Notes under the pieces: model-generated
What the model was told of the DNA's origin: nothing
The model's database searches: none
Seen by the model: only the letters and a program-made list of their open reading frames with translations
Shown: piece after piece, positions 202-9,499 of the stretch
How positions within the stretch are numbered: position 1 is the first letter of the stretch
Layout of the letters: each line of letters starts with the position of its first letter
Program-made: the position numbers and the translations under genes
NCBI GenBank assembly: GCA_036567745.1
Contig: DATCTW010000045.1
Coordinates: forward strand, 74,471 to 138,470
Origin: Ignavibacteria bacterium
Lineage (GTDB): Bacteria; Bacteroidota; Ignavibacteria; DATCTW01
DNA length: 64,000 nt
Reading direction: 5' to 3'

Positions 202-993
202 TCATATTACATCAAACAATGTTCTTTGTTTTTCTGATTTTATCAAATTATTATTTATTTCTTTTGTTTTTCCTTCTAATCTTTGTAGTATAGTTGTATA
301 GTATTCTTTTGAGATTTCAATAGTAATATAATTTCTCTTTAATTTTTTTGCTACATATGCCGTAGTTCCAGTCCCACCAAATGGATCTAATATAATATCC
401 TTTTCATTAGAACTTGCTTTAATTACTAATTCTAATAAATCCTCAGGCATCTGACAAGGATGCTCACCTATTCGCTCTTTAAAAGTTCCACAAACTCTTG
501 AAAATTGCCATACATCATCCGGTACCTTTCCTAATGGATTAGCTCTTTTATCGTTATAAATTAATTGTCTAGCTGATGGAATTCTTATATCATTATCATT
601 AAAAATAAAATTTTCTTTATCTTTAACAAAATAAAGTATATGAGTATGAGATCTATTAAATTTTTTTCTTTGATTTTGTCCAAAAGTATAATACCAAATA
701 ATCCAGTTCCTAAAATAAAATCCTTTCTTTTTGAGAATTATATTTATTTCAGCAGCAAATTCATCTCCTATAGCAATATAAATTGATCCATTATTTTTTA
801 AAATTCTGTAACATTCACTAATCCATCTATCAGACCATTTATAATATTCATCATAAGGCATATTGTCATTATGCAAATCATATTTTATTCCTATGTTAAA
901 AGGTGGATCAGCGAATATTAAATCAACAGAACCTTTTGGGATATTATTCATAATTTCTATACAATCACCTAAATATACTTTATTTATTTCCAA
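202..993 (-). CDS. Type II DNA methyltransferase, beta-class, likely N6-adenine (N4-cytosine not excluded)
   Basis: Motif IV ADPPF lies near the N-terminus and an AdoMet motif I-like DPFGGTGTT near the C-terminus; this is the permuted beta-class order. Length is 263 aa. The gene overlaps the upstream nuclease ORF by 14 nt on the same strand. Confidence 0.85.
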   Translation of the reverse strand: MEINKVYLGDCIEIMNNIPKGSVDLIFADPPFNIGIKYDLHNDNMPYDEYYKWSDRWISECYRILKNNGSIYIAIGDEFAAEINIILKKKGFYFRNWIIWYYTFGQNQRKKFNRSHTHILYFVKDKENFIFNDNDIRIPSARQLIYNDKRANPLGKVPDDVWQFSRVCGTFKERIGEHPCQMPEDLLELVIKASSNEKDIILDPFGGTGTTAYVAKKLKRNYITIEISKEYYTTILQRLEGKTKEINNNLIKSEKQRTLFDVI

Positions 994-1864
994 TATTTTC
1001 TTCTCCTCCTATATTAAATAATTCACACGGATTAATTTTAAATTGTAACTTGGTTGGATCTGGGGTTCCTCCTTTTCTTTGGAGGGTAATTCTGCCAATA
1101 TACAAACTACCTCGTGGTGAAATTTTTATTTCACCACTACCAAAAAAATTAATAGCAGTATTAATATCTTTAAGAATCCATGTTGTCGTATTTTCTTTTT
1201 TGTTAAACCGAGTTATTAAAATCCAATTAGCTGATAACCCTCCTCTTCCTTTTAGAATATCATTTACAATCAATAATCGATTATTTTCAAAAAAATTAAT
1301 AATTTTTTCTTGTATATTTTTAGGCATTTCATTAAAAAATATTCTTCTCTTGTCTTTTAACTTTATTTTTCTAATTTTGTTATTAAATAATTCTGGTTTA
1401 TTTTCTCCAGTAAAAAGTTTTAACCAAAAAGCAATTTCATCACAAAAATTCCACATTTTTTTATATTCATCAACAGATCTTTTATCAATTTGATTATAAT
1501 TAGCATCAGAATTTGCTTTTTTCAATGAAATATTTTCAATTTTTAAAATATTCCCAATCTTAATTCTAATTTTTATTTGAGCATCTGCTTTTTTGAATTT
1601 GATTAACTCTTCAAAATCATCTTCTTTTAATTCATATTCTGCTAATTTTTTTATATTAATTGTAGTTGGAATTTGAACAGCATCAACTGAAGTAATTTTA
1701 TTAACATTGTAACCCATAATTTCAAGCCATAATTTAGCTTCTTCATCTTTTAACCAATTATTAAATTTTTTGCAGATTTCAATTTCGTTTGCAAATCCAC
1801 CTTTAGCAGTAATAGATCCTATTTCTCTTCTATTCATTTTTAACCTATTTTGATTTTGGTACAA
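980..1864 (-). CDS. Putative Type II restriction endonuclease partnered with the downstream methyltransferase
   Basis: The ORF sits directly upstream of the MTase on the same strand with a 14-nt overlap, as expected for an R-M operon. I recognise no family motif. The called start at 1864 is a TTG; an ATG at 1837 (MNRREIGS...) is an alternative start. Confidence 0.5.
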   Translation of the reverse strand: MYQNQNRLKMNRREIGSITAKGGFANEIEICKKFNNWLKDEEAKLWLEIMGYNVNKITSVDAVQIPTTINIKKLAEYELKEDDFEELIKFKKADAQIKIRIKIGNILKIENISLKKANSDANYNQIDKRSVDEYKKMWNFCDEIAFWLKLFTGENKPELFNNKIRKIKLKDKRRIFFNEMPKNIQEKIINFFENNRLLIVNDILKGRGGLSANWILITRFNKKENTTTWILKDINTAINFFGSGEIKISPRGSLYIGRITLQRKGGTPDPTKLQFKINPCELFNIGGEENIGNK

Positions 1865-1962
1865 TTCCCACAGAACTCCTTCATAGACGACAGTGTCGCA
1901 TTTCTTCCATATATGTATGGATAAAGGGCGATATCATCTATCCAACTTTTTAATTTAATCAT
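1840..1962 (-). CDS. Small upstream ORF (40 aa, MIKLKSWIDDIALYPYIYGRNATLSSMKEFCGNCTKIKIG), copy 1
   Basis: ATG at 1962 (minus) is preceded by AGGAG 6 nt upstream. The stop TAA (1840-1842) lies 2 nt before the ATG at 1837 of the nuclease gene. A paralogous copy sits at 3923-4015. Not in the ORF track because it is under 60 aa. Confidence 0.3.
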   Translation of the reverse strand: MIKLKSWIDDIALYPYIYGRNATLSSMKEFCGNCTKIKIG

Positions 1963-1985
1963 GTTTAATCTCCTTGTAAGATTTT
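1866..1985 (-). repeat. Duplicated leader segment A (RBS plus N-terminus of the small ORF), copy 1; about 80% identical to 3920-4037
   Basis: Direct alignment of aactccttcatagacgacagtgtcgcatttc...catgtttaatctccttgtaag against 3920-4037. Confidence 0.8.
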
Positions 1986-2123
1986 TTCTAAGTTGTAATA
2001 GATAAAAGATTTAAATCTATTATTGCTGTATTTTTTTAAAAGGAGTTCTTTTCTTAAATCTTCAAAGTTATAAACAGATAAATTTACCACTTAACTATAT
2101 TTTACACTTTTATTTATATTATA

Positions 2124-2188
2124 ATTTTACAAAAAAAAATCTGGAAAAGCAATATTTTTATGAATAGTATTTTCGATGAAGTGATTAT
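2124..2188. repeat. 65-bp block B (attttacaaaaaaaaatctggaaaagcaatatttttatgaatagtattttcgatgaagtgattat), copy 1
   Basis: Base-for-base identical to 4253-4317. It has the same orientation and the same relative position upstream (minus-strand sense) of segment A. Confidence 0.85.
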
Positions 2189-2225
2189 TAAAATGGATCG
2201 ATAGCTAATATTCGGTAACTTGCAG

Positions 2226-3266
2226 TTAGACGTTGGCCATCTCTTTTTTTTCTATTATTAAATTAATTATTTCTTTTAAAATTTCTAAAAAAACTTCAAT
2301 TTCTTTTTCACTGTAATCTTTGTTTATTAACCATTTTAGATTATCACCTGCATTAGTAAATAATCCGGTTTTTTCTAATTTATTTCTATAAATATCAACA
2401 ATTTTTTCTGAATCTTCAACTTTTTTTATTATATTTTCAAAACCAGTATAAATACTTTGTTTAAATACACAATTAGGAGGATAACCAAATAATAAAGCAA
2501 TTTTTTCATTATTGAAAATAGTATTTAATGAAAATCCTTTTGAACCCCAAATAAAATGTAATTTTTTAGATTTTGCAAATTCAAATAATTTTGAAAAAAC
2601 TTTCTGTCCATTTTTATCGAGGGATTTGATAAACTCATTTTCATTAACTTTTGGTAGTGAGGCAGATTTAATTTCTTGTTTTTTATATTCTTCATCACCA
2701 ATTACATAATCTAATGTAATTATTTTTTCGCCTGATTTTGTTTGAAAATATTTAAATTCAAGGCAATTTATATTAATTCCATTTTTTCTTAAAAAAGTTG
2801 CGGTTTGTTTTATTTCTTTTGTAATATTTTGAGCAACAATTAATAAAATTAATTTTTTATTGAATGATACATTTTCATTATTTTGAAAAAATTGTTGATG
2901 ATAATCTTGGAGATCAACTTCATCCCCAAAGTAATTTTTAAATATATCGTTTAGTTGGCTGTAATCTAAATTTTCAATAAATGACGCATATTCTAATATT
3001 TGAGCAACAGTATCTCTCGGAGTTCTATCTCTTTTCAATTCAATAATAACAGTATTTCCGTTTTTATCAACCCCTAATAAATCAATAAATGAATTTAAGT
3101 TGGTAGTAACTTGTCTGCCAATAATTAAAACATTACTTTTTTCAAAAAAATATTCAGGATTTTTTTCTAATAGTATTTCTAAATCTTGCTCAATATTATC
3201 TTTTTTAAATAATTCTTCTTTATATTCTGATAATTTTCCATCTTTATTGATTGTAAATAATTTCAT
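2226..3266 (-). CDS. NucS/DUF91-like PD-(D/E)xK nuclease-domain protein with an uncharacterized C-terminal domain
   Basis: Residues ~45-100 (VLIIGRQV...IDLLGVDKNGNTVIIELKRDR...VAQILEYASFI) match the RecB-like nuclease core of DUF91/NucS: E/D...D...ELK...QxxxY. The remaining ~230 aa are unrecognised. The gene lies between two R-M systems. Confidence 0.55.
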   Translation of the reverse strand: MKLFTINKDGKLSEYKEELFKKDNIEQDLEILLEKNPEYFFEKSNVLIIGRQVTTNLNSFIDLLGVDKNGNTVIIELKRDRTPRDTVAQILEYASFIENLDYSQLNDIFKNYFGDEVDLQDYHQQFFQNNENVSFNKKLILLIVAQNITKEIKQTATFLRKNGININCLEFKYFQTKSGEKIITLDYVIGDEEYKKQEIKSASLPKVNENEFIKSLDKNGQKVFSKLFEFAKSKKLHFIWGSKGFSLNTIFNNEKIALLFGYPPNCVFKQSIYTGFENIIKKVEDSEKIVDIYRNKLEKTGLFTNAGDNLKWLINKDYSEKEIEVFLEILKEIINLIIEKKEMANV

Positions 3267-3455
3267 TTATATCAACTCCAAAAAGTGGTGGTATGTATTT
3301 AACTTTTGGGGGCTTTGCATTTGGGAGAGTTTCAAAGCACAAAACATTCAAACAAGCAGAGACTTTGATAGAAGCACAAAGCTTTATTTAATCACTGAAC
3401 CACCACTTATAAGTAAGTTGTGTTGTAAGCCGTTTTTATTCGTCCATTAAATGCT

Positions 3456-3780
3456 CTAAGTCGTTTTTTTTTCGTTTCCAATTCCTTTTGGATTTGGCCC
3501 AAATACATTTATTCCAATTTCACTATCAGCGAAAAGCATCCATAAAAAGTAAAATGGAATAATTTGATACCAACCATTATTACCTATGTCATGGCATCTT
3601 TTTGCACCTTGTGATAGCAAAAACCAAATGGCTGGAATTGATAGTAAGTACATAATGTCTTCTTCTAAATCAGCATACAGGATAAATAGATAAGCTATAA
3701 AATTGTAAGCAAAATAATATTACTTAGCCAGAATTCAGTTCTTGTGATACGTCCTTCAAATGAAAATGGTTTTTTAAACA
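3456..3780 (-). pseudogene. DUF805-family small membrane protein gene disrupted by a frameshift
   Basis: The N-terminal piece MFKKPFSFEGRITRTEFWLSNIILLTIL ends in a stop. The rest continues in another frame: ...AYLFILYADLEEDIMYLLSIPAIWFLLSQGAKRCHDIGNNGWYQIIPF...GPNPKG, which is the DUF805 RRxHDxGxSGWW...GPN signature. The frame switch is near 3700-3715. Confidence 0.5.
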
Positions 3781-3922
3781 TAGCTTTTTGATCCTAATTG
3801 TTAAACATTTAGTCTTTTATGTAATTACTTTTTGTAAAGTCTGCATGTATAAACCTCAATTTTATCAAGTGTTAATTTGTCTCTGTGTTTGTCTAGTTCG
3901 CATAAGCTGTCTTTCAAAAAGG

Positions 3923-4015
3923 CTATAACTCCTTCATAGATGACAGTATCGCTTTTTGTCCACATATGTATGGATTAAGGGCGATGTTATCTATCCAACT
4001 CATAAGCTTAATCAT
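3923..4015 (-). CDS. Small upstream ORF copy 2 (30 aa, MIKLMSWIDNIALNPYICGQKAILSSMKEL)
   Basis: Paralog of 1840-1962 with an AGGAG RBS. A premature stop makes it shorter than copy 1. It lies upstream of the DUF805 pseudogene. Confidence 0.25.
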   Translation of the reverse strand: MIKLMSWIDNIALNPYICGQKAILSSMKEL

Positions 4016-4252
4016 GTTTAATCTCCTTGTAAGGTTTGGTCTAAAGGGTCTTTTATCCTTACGATGTTTCTTGATTTCATAAACAAATATTTTTTTAAGC
4101 AATGTGTATTAAAATATAACAAGGGTTTTTGGATATAAATAATAATACTCTCTATATATTATTTATACCTTTCAACATTTTTTTTTCTTTAAGATATAAT
4201 GAAGAGTTGTTTACTGCTTTCCTTTTTTCAATTTTATTTTTTTTATGTTATT

Positions 4253-4317
4253 ATTTTACAAAAAAAAATCTGGAAAAGCAATATTTTTATGAATAGTATT
4301 TTCGATGAAGTGATTAT
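4253..4317. repeat. 65-bp block B, copy 2
   Basis: Identical to 2124-2188. Confidence 0.85.
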
Positions 4318-4473
4318 GAAAAATGTAGCTCGAAGAGTTAATATATAGTATAATTTCGATAAAGAGATCACCAAAAAAGTGAAGAGATAAAATGCGAAAA
4401 AGTATTTTATTGTTGGTATAGATTTATTTTCTATTGTTCAATTTCTTATTAAAGGCAGGACTTTAATTTTTAT

Positions 4474-7113
4474 TTATCCAAAGCTCTCTTCAATAATCTT
4501 TTTTTCTTCTTCTGTTATACCATAAATTTGATAGACAAGCTCATCAATTTCTGCATCGGTTTTTTTTATTTCTTCTTCAATTTTTGCTCTTTCATCTGTC
4601 TTCTTGTCTCCGATTTCGTTAAGGCGTTTGTTGAGAGAAAGCATTTTATCAACAAAATGGATTATTTTATCTTGTTCAGCAATAGACAATATTTTAATAG
4701 GAAATTTTTTTGCATTAGCTATTAATATTTTTTGAAAAAGATTTTTTGTAGGGTCTAAATATTTCTCTTTGTGATAGTAAGTTATTAATTTAGAGTTTAA
4801 TATAGCGAGAATATATTTTATTTTAACTTTAGTTTCATCTTTTGACAAAATATTAAATCCTATTTGCGAATTATATAGTTCCTCATTTGTATAACCTGCG
4901 TATATTCTTGGTGGTTTTCCGCTGATTATTTGCCTCACAACAATACGAGGTTTTGTAAAGAATCTCTTTTCTCTCGGAGCGCCTAACCAATTACCATAAC
5001 TAATATATTCTTTTTTATCCCAGTAAATACCATATCTAATAATATTTTCTCCAGAAAGTAGAGGTTTAAAGGTTTCATTCTTTTTTGTTTGAGAATGAAA
5101 AACCCTATTTTTTATTTGTTGTTCAGAATGTCCTTTATATTTATCATATGGGGTTAGACCAAGTGAAAAATCACATATTTCTATAAGATTTGTATTTTTC
5201 TCTTCTATTTTCGCGAGTATCTTTTTTACAATTGTATTTATTGTAATGTTAAAGTTAAAGTTTTCAGCTTCCCATACATTTTGATTGTAATATGTAATTT
5301 TTGGACAATTATCTTTTTTAATCCTGTTAATTGATATTTCTCTAGGATAAAGATAGACTTCACATTCTTCTGATTTCTTTTTCTTAGTTTTTTTATAAAT
5401 CAAAATAACTGTCTCAATTTTAACTCCCTCAAAAATATTATCTGGTAATCTTACAATCTTTTTAAGATTAGTATTAAATAATAACAATTTTCTTATTTTG
5501 GTATAAGACTCGTTATACAGTATTGAATTAGGTATAATAAAACCAAAGTAGCCCCCATCCTTTAATAAAGCTAAAGATTTTTCAACAAAAGTAGAATACA
5601 AATTCATTCTATTTTCTACAGTATTATAATTTTCAAAAAGGAATTTTACTATTTTAGGATCAAGTTGTTTTATATCAACATACGGTGGATTCCCAATTAC
5701 AACATCAAACCCACCTTCTTGCATAACTTTTTTAAATTCTTCTTCCCATTTAAAAGCTTTATCTCCTGCTATTGAGGGGTCATCAATTAATGAGTTCCCG
5801 CATTTTATGTTTTCCTGAAGTAATGGAAGGCGTTGCCCTTTTTCTGCAATCTTTAACAAAAGGTTAAGCTGTGCTATCTCTACCGCCTGTTTATCTAAAT
5901 CCACACCGAAAATGTTATTTTTGAGTATTTTTACTTTTGATGTGAATGGCAGACCTGTTTTAAAATCTATTTGTGTCTGTGAATAGTTTTTATCATGCTT
6001 CGCATAATATTCATTCAAAACATCGAAAGCTTTTATCAAGAATGAGCCAGAGCCACAAGCAGGATCTAAAACCCTTATTTTTTCAGGATTAACTTTTTTT
6101 TCTTTAAGCAGTTCCCCCAAAGTATTCCTTACGATATAATCTACAATATAAGTGGGAGTATAATAAATTCCTTGCTCTTTTCTGTGTGCGTGGTTTTCTG
6201 TAAGCTTTGCTCTTTTCTCACTTTTCTTTAAGATATGGCCAAGATACTGCTCGTAAATGTTACCTAAAATATCTGCTTCAATGGCTGAAAAATCATAAGA
6301 AACAGATTTGTCTTTTGTAAAATAAAGTCCTTCAATAATTTCGTGCAAAACTTCGTTGTCTATATCCAAATTGTCGCATAAATGATTTGCAAAAATTTTG
6401 CTGTTATAATTTTTGTCAAAATAGGCAAAAACCTCTCTCAAACTTTTTATTAACTGCCCTCTGCCTTTGCTTTCCCATTCCCTAAAGCTGGAAATCAAGG
6501 TTTTTGCTTCAAGCTCCCTATCTTCGCAGTTTCTGATAAAAATTAATCTGTCTAAAATTCTTTGAACAGCTTCATCTAAATCTTCTTCTGTGAGGTTTTT
6601 GTTTAATTTAGTTATATTCTTTAAAAGCAATTCCCTGAATCTTGTAAAATCTGCCAAAAGCTGTTTATCAACAGAAATCTTTTTTGTTTTCTTACCCCAT
6701 TTCTCTGCCTCTTTATCTATCAATCCCTGTTCAAAACTTTCTTTTGATAAAAGAGACAATTCGCTGAACCTATCTAAAAACTCCTGGCAGGGAATTGTTT
6801 TAAGATGATTCTGCAATGGATTAGAAGTTTTCCATTCAGCATTAAAGATTTTTACGCTTTCAAAGTTAGTAAGAATAGCCCAAGTGCAACCTTTATGCCA
6901 AGCATAATTTATTGCCTGTTCAATAAATTTAGGATTGTCCAAATCTTCTTTTAGAGATTTTGCTTCCAAAAAGAATTTTGGAATACCGTTAATTCTGAAA
7001 CCATAATCAACTCTTTTTTTGGAAACTTTTTCTTCAGCAGTAACCTCGTTTGAATCTTCAGTATTCCACCCTAACGCACGAAATAGAGGTAGAATAAAAT
7101 CCTTTTTAGTCAT
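4474..7113 (-). CDS. Type IIG/IIL single-chain restriction-modification enzyme (N-terminal PD-ExK nuclease, gamma-class N6-adenine MTase, C-terminal target-recognition region)
   Basis: N-terminus VDYGFRINGIPKFFLEAKSL is a D...EAK nuclease motif. Motif I is VLDPACGSGSFL and motif IV is VVIGNPPYV. The 879-aa size is comparable to MmeI-type enzymes. No separate S subunit, R subunit or BREX partner genes are nearby. Confidence 0.75.
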   Translation of the reverse strand: MTKKDFILPLFRALGWNTEDSNEVTAEEKVSKKRVDYGFRINGIPKFFLEAKSLKEDLDNPKFIEQAINYAWHKGCTWAILTNFESVKIFNAEWKTSNPLQNHLKTIPCQEFLDRFSELSLLSKESFEQGLIDKEAEKWGKKTKKISVDKQLLADFTRFRELLLKNITKLNKNLTEEDLDEAVQRILDRLIFIRNCEDRELEAKTLISSFREWESKGRGQLIKSLREVFAYFDKNYNSKIFANHLCDNLDIDNEVLHEIIEGLYFTKDKSVSYDFSAIEADILGNIYEQYLGHILKKSEKRAKLTENHAHRKEQGIYYTPTYIVDYIVRNTLGELLKEKKVNPEKIRVLDPACGSGSFLIKAFDVLNEYYAKHDKNYSQTQIDFKTGLPFTSKVKILKNNIFGVDLDKQAVEIAQLNLLLKIAEKGQRLPLLQENIKCGNSLIDDPSIAGDKAFKWEEEFKKVMQEGGFDVVIGNPPYVDIKQLDPKIVKFLFENYNTVENRMNLYSTFVEKSLALLKDGGYFGFIIPNSILYNESYTKIRKLLLFNTNLKKIVRLPDNIFEGVKIETVILIYKKTKKKKSEECEVYLYPREISINRIKKDNCPKITYYNQNVWEAENFNFNITINTIVKKILAKIEEKNTNLIEICDFSLGLTPYDKYKGHSEQQIKNRVFHSQTKKNETFKPLLSGENIIRYGIYWDKKEYISYGNWLGAPREKRFFTKPRIVVRQIISGKPPRIYAGYTNEELYNSQIGFNILSKDETKVKIKYILAILNSKLITYYHKEKYLDPTKNLFQKILIANAKKFPIKILSIAEQDKIIHFVDKMLSLNKRLNEIGDKKTDERAKIEEEIKKTDAEIDELVYQIYGITEEEKKIIEESFG

Positions 7114-7527
7114 CTCCTCATTGTATTTACTGACTCTTTTTTCTTCTACAACTTTGTCATATTTCTCTAAAAGATTTCTGATTTCTTGTTTTATAGTTTC
7201 CTCCCAGAATAAATTGTTTATATAAATAATATTTTATAACCCAAAAATCAAGGAAAAGAATATCCCCTTTAATTTTTTATCAGTTACAACTTTTAAAGAG
7301 TAGCTGATTCACTATAAAAAAATATTAATAAATATATTTTTTTAACTAAACTTTCTATATATAATAAAGTTAAATAAAACTAATAGATTGGAATATTTTG
7401 GGGCATTTACAAGGTTTCAATATTAGAAATATAGATTAAAAATAACATTGATCAAAAAAAATATTTAAATATTATTAGTATAAAACTTATTAAATAACAG
7501 ATTATATACTTTATAGGGAGATTTTTT

Positions 7528-9159
7528 ATGAATTTTAAAAATTTATCACTATCAGCAAAAGTTTTGGCTGGTTTTATAATTATTGCCTTGATAGCATCAA
7601 TTAATACTTACATTAATTTATTATCAGCTAAAGCCAGTAATAACATAACACAGCAAATCATCAAAATCAGAACACCTAAAATTATTGATTTACTAAATAT
7701 AAAATTCAATATTTCAGAAATAAAATCTTATAGAAGAACATTTATTTCACGAGAAATGTCTATAAATGATAGAGAGAAACAATATGGTAAAATGGAGAAT
7801 AATTTTATATCTTTAAGAAAATCTTATGATAGCTATGATAAAACAGAAAAAAGGGAATTTGCTTATAAAAACTGGGAATTATTTAAAACTAATTTTAAAA
7901 TATGGGAACAACTCCATAATAAATTCATTTCAAAATCAAAGGAACTTGATAATGCATTAAAATTAAACCATAGTAATGTTGATAATTTATACAAAGAATT
8001 AGCGCAAATAACATTAGTTGAATTGGCAGAATATACTTCTAAAATGGAGAGTATTATTGATGAATTAGTAAATTATAATTTTGAAATGAATAAACAGGAA
8101 AGCGATTTAGCAGATAAAAAAATAAGTAATACTAGTACTATAACCATTATTTTAGCTATTATATTATTTATTATTGCAATTTCGTTAGGTTTATATATTT
8201 CAAGAAATGTTATAAAAAAGCCAATATCTGATTTAATAAATGCAATAAAAAAAGTGATACAGGGTGATTTTACAACACAAATAGAGATTAAAAATAAAGA
8301 TGAAATCGGAAGAATATCTGAAATGATAAATGATTTGATAAAATCGAGAAAAGATGAAATTACAGATTTACTTAAAAGAAGTGAAACAATTATAAATGCA
8401 AGCAAAAGACTGTTGAATGTTAGTATAAATGTACAGGAAAATTCTGAAAAATTAAATGAACAGACTTCCATTACAGCGGCATCAAGCGAACAGGTTTCGA
8501 CAAATATTTCTACAGTATCAAGTGCGGCAGAGGAGATGGCTTCAAGTGTAAAAGAAATTGCAAAAAATACAAATACTGCCTCATCAATATCAAATGATGC
8601 TGCAAGTAAAGCAACAGTTGCTGGTGAAGTAATAGATAGACTTGGAAAAAGTTCATCAGAAATTGGTAATATTGTTAAAGCAATAAACACAATAGCAGAA
8701 CAAACAAACCTTTTAGCTCTTAATGCAACAATTGAAGCAGCAAGAGCCGGAGAGAGTGGTAAAGGTTTTGCAGTTGTAGCTAACGAAGTAAAAGAGCTTG
8801 CCAAAGAAGCTGGTAAAGCTACAGAAGATATTTCCAATAGAATTAAAATGATACAGGAAGAGAGCAATAATGCAATAAATGTTATAAAAGAAATTATTGA
8901 AAGCATCACACAAATTAATGACATATCAAATACTATTGCTTCGGCTGTTGAGGAGCAAACTGTAACAACTTCAGAAATTACCCGAAACTTATCTGAAGCC
9001 ACTAAAGGAGCTTCTACAGTTGCGGAAAGTAATGCTGAAATTTCTAAAACAGTAGAAGATTACAGAAATATGTCAACACAAATAAAAGATGATGCGCATA
9101 ACCTTGAAGAGATAGCTACTTCACTAAAGCAACATCTAGTTAGTAGTTATAAAATTTAA
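7528..9159 (+). CDS. Methyl-accepting chemotaxis protein
   Basis: Contains an N-terminal TM segment, a second TM segment plus HAMP region around residue 200, and an MCP signalling domain ([33 protein letters not shown]). Confidence 0.9.
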
Positions 9160-9205: not shown

Positions 9206-9425
9206 TAAAAATATTAAACTTTTATATTAATAATATCATACCATTTTGTAGTATAAAAAATAAGATTTTTTTTATCTCACTTTTAACTTTCTGCTACAAG
9301 TCTGAGAAGCAAGCTTTAAAGTTTCATAAATTTAGATTTTTTTACTGACTAGTTTTAATAATTTTTACAAAAAAAGTAAAATTAATCAGAAATTTAATAT
9401 GTAGGTTTAAGAATGGGATATTTAG

Positions 9426-9499
9426 TGGGCCCTGTAGGACTCGAACCTACGACCCACAGATTATGAGTCTGTTGCTCTAACCAACTGAGCTAAGGGCCC
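9426..9499 (-). tRNA. tRNA-Met (anticodon CAT; elongator Met or Ile2/lysidine type not distinguishable)
   Basis: The reverse complement GGGCCCTTAGCTCAGTTGGTTAGAGCAACAGACTCATAATCTGTGGGTCGTAGGTTCGAGTCCTACAGGGCCCA folds as a cloverleaf with a GGTTCGAGTCC T-arm and a CAT anticodon. Confidence 0.85.

Follow-up and report, generated by a model that had tools for sequence, protein, structure and literature searches.

Why do two copies of a short sequence in a bacterial chromosome agree base for base, when the duplicated segment beside them has diverged? The question is raised by a 65-bp block that occurs twice, 2.1 kb apart, in a stretch of 64,000 nucleotides that was analysed as a whole (hereafter the window). 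An earlier note on this DNA offered either recent gene conversion or recombination, or constraint on the sequence, as the cause. The evidence set out below suggests that both contribute, and that the block is the control region left over from a decayed recombinase gene.

A 65-bp repeat in a minus-strand defence island

The window is chromosomal DNA of 28% G+C and carries nusG, rplKAJL, rpoBC and the enolase gene. Its 287-aa primary sigma factor, of the Bacteroidetes type, is 100% identical to a protein named "MAG TPA: Bacteroidota bacterium", and close relatives of this factor are labelled Ignavibacteria or Chlorobi. Between 202 and 7113, every gene lies on the minus strand. The genes around the repeat are as follows.

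202–993, minus strand: N4/N6 DNA methyltransferase, partner of the endonuclease (PF01555, E = 3e-61; PADLOC MTase_II).
980–1837, minus strand: R.HinP1I-like endonuclease, cargo of module 1 (Pfam PF11463, E = 5e-56; PADLOC REase_II).
2226–3266, minus strand: NucS_C-domain protein, candidate defence gene PDC-S11 (PADLOC), between the modules.
3456–3783, minus strand: frameshifted DUF805 pseudogene, cargo of module 2.
4474–7113, minus strand: Type IIG restriction-modification enzyme (Eco57I/MmeI-like), upstream of module 2.
9425–9499, minus strand: tRNA-Met.

An MCP protein gene lies at 7528–9159, for which a protein look-up returned no record, and an AbiJ-like gene comes next past the start of the window. 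Synteny among strains is lost 19 nt past the 3' end of tRNA-Met (9406/9405), and this break appears to be the boundary of the island. No direct repeat of the tRNA-Met 3' end that could act as an att site was found inside the island.

The two blocks, at 2124–2188 and 4253–4317, are identical over exactly 65 nt, as had been claimed, and the adjoining base is mismatched at either end. They form the core of an 86-nt homology (2108–2193 and 4237–4322) in which 82 positions agree (95%). Both copies are intergenic and have the same orientation, enclosing a 2,064-bp segment with the candidate defence gene. The description of the block as non-palindromic with a run of nine A also stands, since A9 occupies 2131–2139 and self-complementarity is not significant (z = 0.18 and 0.79). 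When up to three mismatches are allowed, the 64-kb window contains two copies, against an expectation of 0 from 100 shuffles. A common AT-rich repeat without positional association, the observation that the earlier note had named as speaking against a special role, is not what was found; the family is small, and all copies found have the same orientation and sit between the defence cassettes of one island. In 185,579 species genomes and in IMG/VR, a 22-mer from the block had no match; JGI metagenomes gave three, two of them the orthologous locus and one a chance match in an Lrp-like gene. Of the matches from the exact-pattern scans, L005 (metagenome) and L054 (viral) were rejected as chance matches inside genes, and blastn of plasmid and phage collections returned low-complexity matches only.

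The 65-bp repeat is real in the sample and not the product of one assembly. An artefact such as collapsed or mis-joined contigs might be suspected in a metagenome-type assembly, the more so as the Logan contigs of SRR2059973 break at the repeat, but it is scarcely credible: the contigs stop exactly 30 nt inside either copy (L001 equals window 2159–4282 and L002 equals 4288–8474), as k=31 unitigs would if a true perfect repeat reached 31 nt or more, three other assemblies (the independent JGI contigs L006, L007 and L045) also join spacer 1, the block and the NucS-like gene, and the order of module 2 (upstream region, block, spacer 2, segment A) is contiguous in L057 and L058.

The block and its neighbours form one module

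The block, an "unalignable" spacer and a duplicated segment (segment A) had been treated separately in the earlier note. All three turned out to be a single recombinase-remnant unit, a module of roughly 330–480 bp that occurs twice in the window. On the minus strand, the order is block, remnant of a tyrosine-recombinase gene, segment A and unrelated cargo. The parts are located as follows.

2124–2188, minus strand: block copy 1, exactly identical to 4253–4317; hexamers and spacing read from the sequence.
1965–2090, minus strand: recombinase remnant of module 1, a 41-codon ORF with a GTG start.
1874–1991, minus strand: segment A copy 1, with an AAGGAG ribosome-binding site (RBS), a 40-codon ORF (1962–1840) and a hairpin.
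4318–4411, minus strand: upstream extension of module 2, kept with strains U and V and missing from module 1.
4253–4317, minus strand: block copy 2, matching the strain U copy (L058) at 64/65 positions.
4018–4236, minus strand: recombinase remnant of module 2, recognised by tblastn and by DNA homology to the intact gene.
3927–4044, minus strand: segment A copy 2, with a 30-codon ORF (4012–3923) and a hairpin (~3994–3936).

The segment A copies have diverged, as reported earlier, and their measured identity of 85.6% over 118 nt is slightly higher than the ~80% then given. Segment A carries the strong RBS AAGGAG and a small ORF of 30–40 codons. In copy 1, it includes an imperfect hairpin of ~60 nt at about 1941–1883, and the homology stops at ...TCTATGAAGGAGTT. 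The cargo behind the two copies differs, being the R.HinP1I-like restriction-modification (R-M) genes behind copy 1 and the DUF805 pseudogene with the NucS-like gene behind copy 2. The ATG of the R.HinP1I-like endonuclease lies 2 nt past the stop codon of the small ORF in segment A copy 1. Relative to the small-ORF start, block copy 1 lies at −162 to −226 and block copy 2 at −241 to −305. The upstream extension of module 2 is 86/89 identical to L058. Module 1 is without this extension, and the NucS-like gene abuts its block.

Two other views of these parts were rejected. The block and segment A are not parts of an R-M unit, being absent from 35 of 35 loci with R.HinP1I homologues (38–69% identity); the closest R.HinP1I homologue outside the species is 72% identical. 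A frameshift-corrected 62-aa reading of segment A has no homologue.

Remnants of a tyrosine-recombinase gene

A phmmer search with the 40-codon ORF of segment A against 1.84 billion representatives gave three true homologues, which share the first 30 residues only and then diverge. In three candidate-division WOR-3 MAGs (L055, L056 and L059), the homologue lies 4 nt past the stop codon of an intact 382-aa recombinase. The L056 tyrosine recombinase has the domains PF13495 and PF00589. It passes NCBIfam NF040815, "site-specific tyrosine recombinase/integron integrase" (XerA), with 232.5 against a cut-off of 220, remains below the integron-integrase cut-off of TIGR02249 (218.8 against 265, matched in two stretches), and scores 166 with NF011946, a model with an IntI-specific insertion and a cut-off of 435. 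By these curated cut-offs, the associated enzyme is classed as Xer/IntI-like and not as an integron integrase.

Both spacers contain pieces of this gene. In module 1, 2069–1992 corresponds to residues 106–131 of the L056 recombinase (tblastn E = 6e-5, 58% identity; reached by 0/500 shuffles), with the translation NFEDLRKELLLKKYSNNRFKSFIYYN, and the remnant then jumps from residue ~131 to the last ~8 codons (LEKILQGD*). In module 2, 4137–4027 corresponds to residues 343–379 (YIQ..RIKDPLDQTLQ; tblastn E = 8.6e-6 when the module sequences were searched and 0.01 for 8 kb). DNA homology to L056 covers segment A and continues into the recombinase gene at its 3' end. A Pfam search of the short remnant translations gave no match. 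On these alignments, the spacers are remnants of a tyrosine-recombinase gene, and the module is a relic of that gene with its flanks. Since the same large internal deletion, roughly residues 132–340, is common to both remnants, the relic lacked the middle of the gene before it spread. Module 1 is short of a further ~63–76 nt. No intact recombinase was found in the window's island.

The block itself could be what is left, past recognition, of an N-terminal extension of the recombinase, which would speak against a promoter. Its best match is to residues 50–79, and this score was reached by 15/500 shuffles for copy 2 (p = 0.03), 85/500 for copy 1 (0.17) and 319/500 for the strain U copy (0.64). 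Compared with box II or with the N-terminal part of the enzyme, the block showed no significant similarity. With nhmmer, no block-like DNA was found in L056 or L059.

The module in other strains

Strain U (L058) is assigned to the same species, since its region with the sigma-54 activator and tRNA-Met is 99.4–100% identical to the window. Its module lies 260 nt past tRNA-Met, is 89% identical to copy 2 over 479 nt, and is followed by a different R-M set, consisting of a methyltransferase, a TdeIII-like endonuclease and an Mrr_N protein. L057 shares this module and cargo, here behind an HNH gene. Strain S (L006, L007, L045 and L046) has module 1 only, and its interval between tRNA-Met and the NucS-like gene holds an AlwI-type R-M-M set; in the window, this interval is occupied by the MCP gene, the Type IIG enzyme, module 2 and the DUF805 pseudogene. 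The window and strain S lose synteny at about 3292–3295 and past 9406/9405, not at the block. Strain T (L043 and L044) has a further diverged copy of the block, 44 nt past a methyltransferase gene.

In every case, the module has the orientation of its cargo. The 5' limits of the modules vary, and all four independently truncated modules keep the block. The end of homology after segment A is constant, at ...GTC(G/A)TCTATGAA, mostly ...GGAGTT, with GTT at the point of divergence in four of five contexts. At least five architectures of the island were seen. From these comparisons, the modules appear to punctuate a strain-variable restriction-modification and defence island in an uncultured Bacteroidota/Ignavibacteria-like bacterium.

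Conservation and homogenisation of the block

Identities between module copies, part by part, were as follows.

Copy 2 and strain U: 89 nt upstream, 86/89; block, 64/65; spacer, 172/207; segment A, 99/113.
Copy 1 and copy 2: upstream not comparable (module 1 truncated); block, 65/65; spacer, 73/208; segment A, 95/113.
Copy 1 and its strain S orthologue: upstream not comparable; block, 62/65; spacer, 131/133; segment A, 105/112.

Between modules of different loci or strains, the block is kept at 98.5–100% with a spacer that is only 35–83% identical. At the 17% divergence of the spacer between copy 2 and strain U, at most one change in 65 nt has a binomial p of about 8e-5. Since this comparison is between genomes, beyond the reach of intragenomic conversion, the block is kept beyond the neutral expectation. 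The constraint is not absolute, because in strain S, a strain of 98% identity, the orthologous block differs at 3/65 positions where the two window copies agree. Three changes in the block compare with an average of 2.2% across the aligned 3.3 kb and with 1.5% in the spacer, and the changed sites fall in a patch at 2140–2264 that is hypervariable between strains. At the edge of the block, strain S agrees with copy 2 and copy 1 differs. The exact identity within the genome probably also stems from recent short-tract conversion or copying. Upstream in the minus-strand sense (plus coordinate 2188/2189), the identity stops at a rearrangement breakpoint, at which the NucS-like cassette joined module 1. 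Each of the two causes offered earlier retains some support: constraint from the block conserved across loci and strains, and recent homogenisation from the three positions at which strain S differs.

The same observations bear on the view that the block is functionless, i.e. a neutral part of a pseudogene module whose sequence passed between the two loci by very recent copying or gene conversion, so that its identity reflects age only. The strain S block, more changed than the aligned average, agrees with this view, as do the end of identity that is a breakpoint and not a functional edge and the pseudogene nature of the DUF805 gene behind copy 2. We nevertheless consider it unlikely, since the strain U block is conserved beside an 83% identical spacer, since the block is retained in all independently truncated modules, and since conversion would have had to occur repeatedly, both between and within genomes.

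A candidate promoter in the block

On the minus strand, the block consists of 36 A/T-rich bases, TTGCTT (2152–2147), a 17-nt interval with T9, and TAAAAT (2129–2124), the hexamer with which the block exactly ends. The block lies 34–98 nt, and TAAAAT 34–39 nt, upstream of a GTG at 2090, the start codon of the module 1 remnant ORF, which lies seven codons ahead of the first recognisable residue of the SAM-like domain. The tRNA promoters of the same window are alike, with TTGACT-N16-TATATT for tRNA-Thr and TTGATT-N17-TATATT for tRNA-Met. The four substitutions in the strain S and strain U copies spare both hexamers. The diverged strain T copy keeps AAAAATATTGCTTTTTCA.ATTTTTTTT, the part with the −35 hexamer and the interval, and is changed in the stretch just upstream.

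The match to sigma-70-type hexamers is 8/12, with 3/6 for TTGCTT. A promoter scan omitted TTGCTT-N17-TAAAAT, which fell below its threshold, and promoter-like sites are no commoner in the sequence than in shuffles (22 against 18.5). TAnnTTTG motifs of the Bacteroidetes type occur 20–75 nt upstream of several genes in the window. The block matches this motif at only 7/8 positions (TTTTTTTG), and a Bacteroidetes-type −33/−7 promoter in the block was rejected because of this match and of the wrong spacing. Since the sigma factor is of the Bacteroidetes type and the block has only this 7/8 match, the promoter could lie elsewhere. Another candidate, TAACTTTG at 2070–2063, lies inside the remnant coding sequence.

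With these points weighed together, we consider that the block provides the 5' regulation of the tyrosine-recombinase relic module, most likely as its promoter, and that constraint and recent homogenisation together explain its identity (probability about 0.6). The block would have been the promoter of the former recombinase gene. As the recombinase decayed, the promoter stretch and segment A would have been retained, and the gene body between them would have drifted. This retention could be explained if the block and segment A still transcribe the downstream cargo and start its translation. The block would then now serve segment A and the cargo by way of the AAGGAG RBS, the short ORF and the ATG of the endonuclease, and the perfect identity of the two copies would reflect constraint plus short-tract homogenisation or copying of recent date.

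Other readings of the block

The block could instead be a site at which the recombinase binds or recombines, for instance an arm-type site or the boundary of a cassette, with its two copies ending a 2.1-kb mobile segment. It does belong to a recombinase module, the direct repeats flank the 2,064-bp segment with the candidate defence gene, two direct TTCAT..AAAATA motifs occur in the block at a distance of 16 nt, and in strain T a copy lies directly behind R-M genes. This reading is nonetheless quite improbable. Neither an inverted repeat nor a core-like dyad occurs in the block; the modules differ in their 5' limits and have a precise boundary only after segment A; more than 1 kb would separate the block from segment A in an intact module; the synteny breaks between the window and strain S lie away from the block; and the island is without an intact recombinase. 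Terminal inverted repeats, as in a MITE, were also rejected, because the end-to-end match was reached by 1026/2000 shuffles for copy 1 and 155/2000 for copy 2.

A small RNA, for which the block had been proposed as a candidate, or a small protein is very unlikely. The RNA fold of the block with and without flanks is no better than shuffles on either strand (−5.3 and −1.8 kcal/mol for the block alone), Rfam 15 has no overlap with the block at E up to 10 (1500–5000) and finds only tRNAs at the gathering score in the whole window, and no conserved terminator was found next to the block. On the plus strand, an ATG at 2160 does open a short ORF (MNSIFDEV...) in both copies, but it runs for 14, 19 and 66 codons in copy 1, copy 2 and the strain S copy, diverges right past the block and has no RBS. 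On the minus strand, a hydrophobic 43-codon ORF (4374–4243) is open in copy 2 and strain U; however, copy 1 has no start codon for it, an RBS is missing, and two of the three differences between copy 2 and strain U alter the protein (Tyr to Asp; a C-terminal Lys extension), the third lying just upstream of the ORF. Its composition, rich in Phe, Ile and Leu, is that of a translated T-rich strand.

The comparison with attC and dif models that the earlier note had called for gave no attC-like or dif-like architecture. An attC site is a 57–141-nt imperfect palindrome folding into a two-armed stem. A strict R''/R' scan found one RYYYAAC...GTTRRRY pair in 8 kb (2231 to 2089). This pair brackets the block, and the associated recombinase is Xer/IntI-like, but its boxes are complementary at only 4/7 positions and L-box pairing is absent. 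The intervening 143 nt fold at −12 kcal/mol, and region 2100–2235 (136 nt) at −5.1 kcal/mol (z = +1.2), without a two-armed stem. A relaxed box scan with DNA folding of all cassette ends gave chance-like pairs only and no attC-like structure, and GCCTAAC...GTTGGGC in L045 was rejected as attC because it extends into the coding region. As a dif or Xer core, the block has neither inverted ~11-bp arms nor a CATAA-N6-TTATG-like dyad. An integron attC and a dif-like Xer site are accordingly both extremely unlikely identities for the block.

Taken as a whole, the module is a genuine trace left by mobile DNA and in other respects fairly ordinary. It provides an example for annotation, in which an identical short repeat beside a decaying duplicate would be the surviving control region of a dead recombinase gene. 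In principle, the 65-bp perfect direct repeats could allow RecA-dependent deletion of the 2.1-kb NucS-like segment; the deletion product was not seen among the contigs retrieved.

Comparison with known systems

Single-recombinase Xer modules have their site beside the gene, as in XerS/difSL, XerH/difH and archaeal XerA/dif. The best NCBIfam match of the L056 recombinase is the XerA model, above its cut-off, and the dyad-containing segment A lies directly beside the recombinase gene. This likeness concerns segment A and not the block, and the hairpin of ~60 nt differs from a 28–31-bp dif. Unlike these modules, those described here have variable DNA past segment A and occur several to an island.

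Putative mobile promoters are near-identical upstream sequences of unrelated genes in one genome, defined by at least 80% identity over at least 50 nt, a −150 to −50 window and non-homologous adjacent coding sequence, and the paper leaves selection or recent duplication open as the cause of identity (Nijveen, Matus-Garcia and van Passel 2012; PMC3575422). The block is similar in its 86-nt homology at 95%, 65 nt of it exact, upstream of unrelated cargo. In contrast to such promoters, it lies 162–305 nt from the small-ORF start, outside the −150 to −50 window, and the adjacent segment A is homologous, so the duplicated-region filter of that work would remove the block.

An integron platform consists of intI, attI, the Pc promoter and cassettes. 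"Inverted integrase" integrons, with intI and cassettes co-oriented, have reportedly been described. The modules resemble a platform in the Xer/IntI-like recombinase (PF13495 and PF00589), the structured site and the unrelated genes that start from a fixed position. The cargo, which consists of defence genes, could be expressed from a promoter located in the recombinase gene or ahead of it. The modules differ in that the recombinase is under the cut-off and decayed in the window's genome, attC sites are missing, and the cargo consists of multi-gene operons. Because the enzyme fails the IntI cut-off and attC sites are absent, the module is not filed as an integron. It is still conceivable, although rather unlikely, that the modules are integron-like, attC-less cassette platforms, in which the recombinase, co-oriented with its cargo, inserts R-M and other genes at the segment A hairpin and the block is a Pc-like promoter. 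The crossover would then occur at or next to the GTT after ...TCTATGAAGGAG, and selection would keep the Pc-like block after decay of the recombinase. If true, this would account for the presence, in two phyla, of five different cargos at a single fixed junction. Segment A, if it is a site-specific insertion point, would represent a new route of defence-gene exchange; its 26-mer was not found in viral contigs.

The nearest known situation seems to be the tRNA-adjacent genomic island, in which decayed integrases are left between cargo blocks. Such islands grow by tandem accretion of integrative elements, which leaves integrase-gene remnants and repeated junctions. Unlike them, the window's island has no direct repeat of the tRNA 3' end, its recombinase is Xer/IntI-like and not a classical tRNA-targeting integrase, and its precise junction is downstream of the recombinase gene, at segment A, and not between tRNA and integrase. 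It shares with them a start close to the tRNA gene, 19 nt past the tRNA-Met 3' end, defence cargo enclosed by two decayed, directly oriented tyrosine-recombinase genes, and a strain-variable architecture. The result marks a compact, strain-variable R-M island at the tRNA-Met of an uncultured digester bacterium.

Possible exchange of the restriction-modification cassette, and the island boundary

The R.HinP1I-like endonuclease and methyltransferase pair (stretch 259-1866) differs by only about 0.4% between the window's strain (W) and the related strain S, whereas the difference amounts to about 3% in the NucS-like gene and about 8-10% in segment A1. Divergence stays low only as far as the junction with segment A, a pattern that suggests a recent exchange of the restriction-modification cassette between strains.

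A hypervariable patch at window 2140-2264, with about 25 differences between W and S over 125 nt, takes in the upstream part of the 65-bp block (2140-2188) together with the 38-nt gap and reaches into the NucS-like gene, where it includes the final 13 codons. Both of its flanks differ by 1-3% in the same comparison, and the patch may be an imported recombination tract.

Homology between W and S resumes about 30 nt before the start codon of the NucS-like gene (window 3295-3301; about 16675 in L045, a contig of strain S), and a GTTRRRY heptamer is located at this point in both strains (GTTAAAT in W and GTTAGGC in S). No attC-like fold was found beside the heptamer at these two positions, and its presence there may be due to chance.

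When W and S are compared with two further strains, U and V, synteny breaks 19 nt past the 3' end of tRNA-Met (window 9405/9406; L045 11660; 530 in L058, a contig of strain U). At least five island architectures exist within one species, and the MCP gene (7528-9159) is present only in W. The DUF805 gene (window 3456-3783) is split by a frameshift: the part reading MFKKPFSFEGRITRTEFW... terminates at a stop codon, and a different frame encodes the 65 C-terminal codons. Either the gene is a pseudogene or the frameshift is an assembly error.

Sequence features of the block, segment A, and the recombinase remnant

A third, diverged copy of the block was observed in strain T directly downstream of the methyltransferase gene (1821-1894 of contig L043, which ends inside the T-run of this copy), where it occupies the place of the window's intergenic region between the methyltransferase and AbiJ-like genes. 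In the window, this region (60-200) has a G+C content far above its surroundings and contains the short dyads CAGCAAGTTGCTG and AACAACTTGCGAGCTGTTG; in strain T, its sequence is replaced from ...GTTCCCT onwards.

A 43-codon ORF rich in Phe, Ile, and Leu with a GTG/TTG start (window 4243-4374, minus strand; L058 about 840-975) coincides with the conserved block and its upstream extension in the module 2 version of W and in U. The ORF has no ribosome-binding site, copy 1 of the block has no start codon for it, and the T-rich composition of the strand probably accounts for this reading frame.

Segment A contains an imperfect hairpin of about 60 nt (1883-1941 and 3936-3994, minus strand; 8203-8268 in the WOR-3 contig L056), with z = -4.1, -3.0, and -1.9 in the three versions. 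The repeated 9-mers ATAGACGAC / GTCGTCTAT form the core of this hairpin, which is nested in a 30-codon ORF that is conserved, with 78% DNA identity, between the Ignavibacteria-like species and WOR-3 MAGs. Changes in the hairpin pairs are mostly single and wobble-compatible, and compensatory changes are few.

Within the recombinase remnant, a 22-nt near-palindrome, ATAATAGATTTAAATCTTTTAT (minus-strand reading), is located at window 2002-2023, about 25 nt upstream of the ribosome-binding site of segment A1. This near-palindrome of copy 1 is not conserved in copy 2.

Promoter and ribosome-binding motifs

TAnnTTTG motifs, which are of the Bacteroidetes -7 type, were observed at window 20837, 24562, 35201, 38989, and 42856, where they precede a dehydrogenase-like gene, an Hsp20 gene, the tRNA-Thr operon, rpoB, and rpoC by 20-75 nt. 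Despite these motifs, strong ribosome-binding sites of the GGAGG/AAGGAG form are present at many genes, an unusual trait in Bacteroidota proper.
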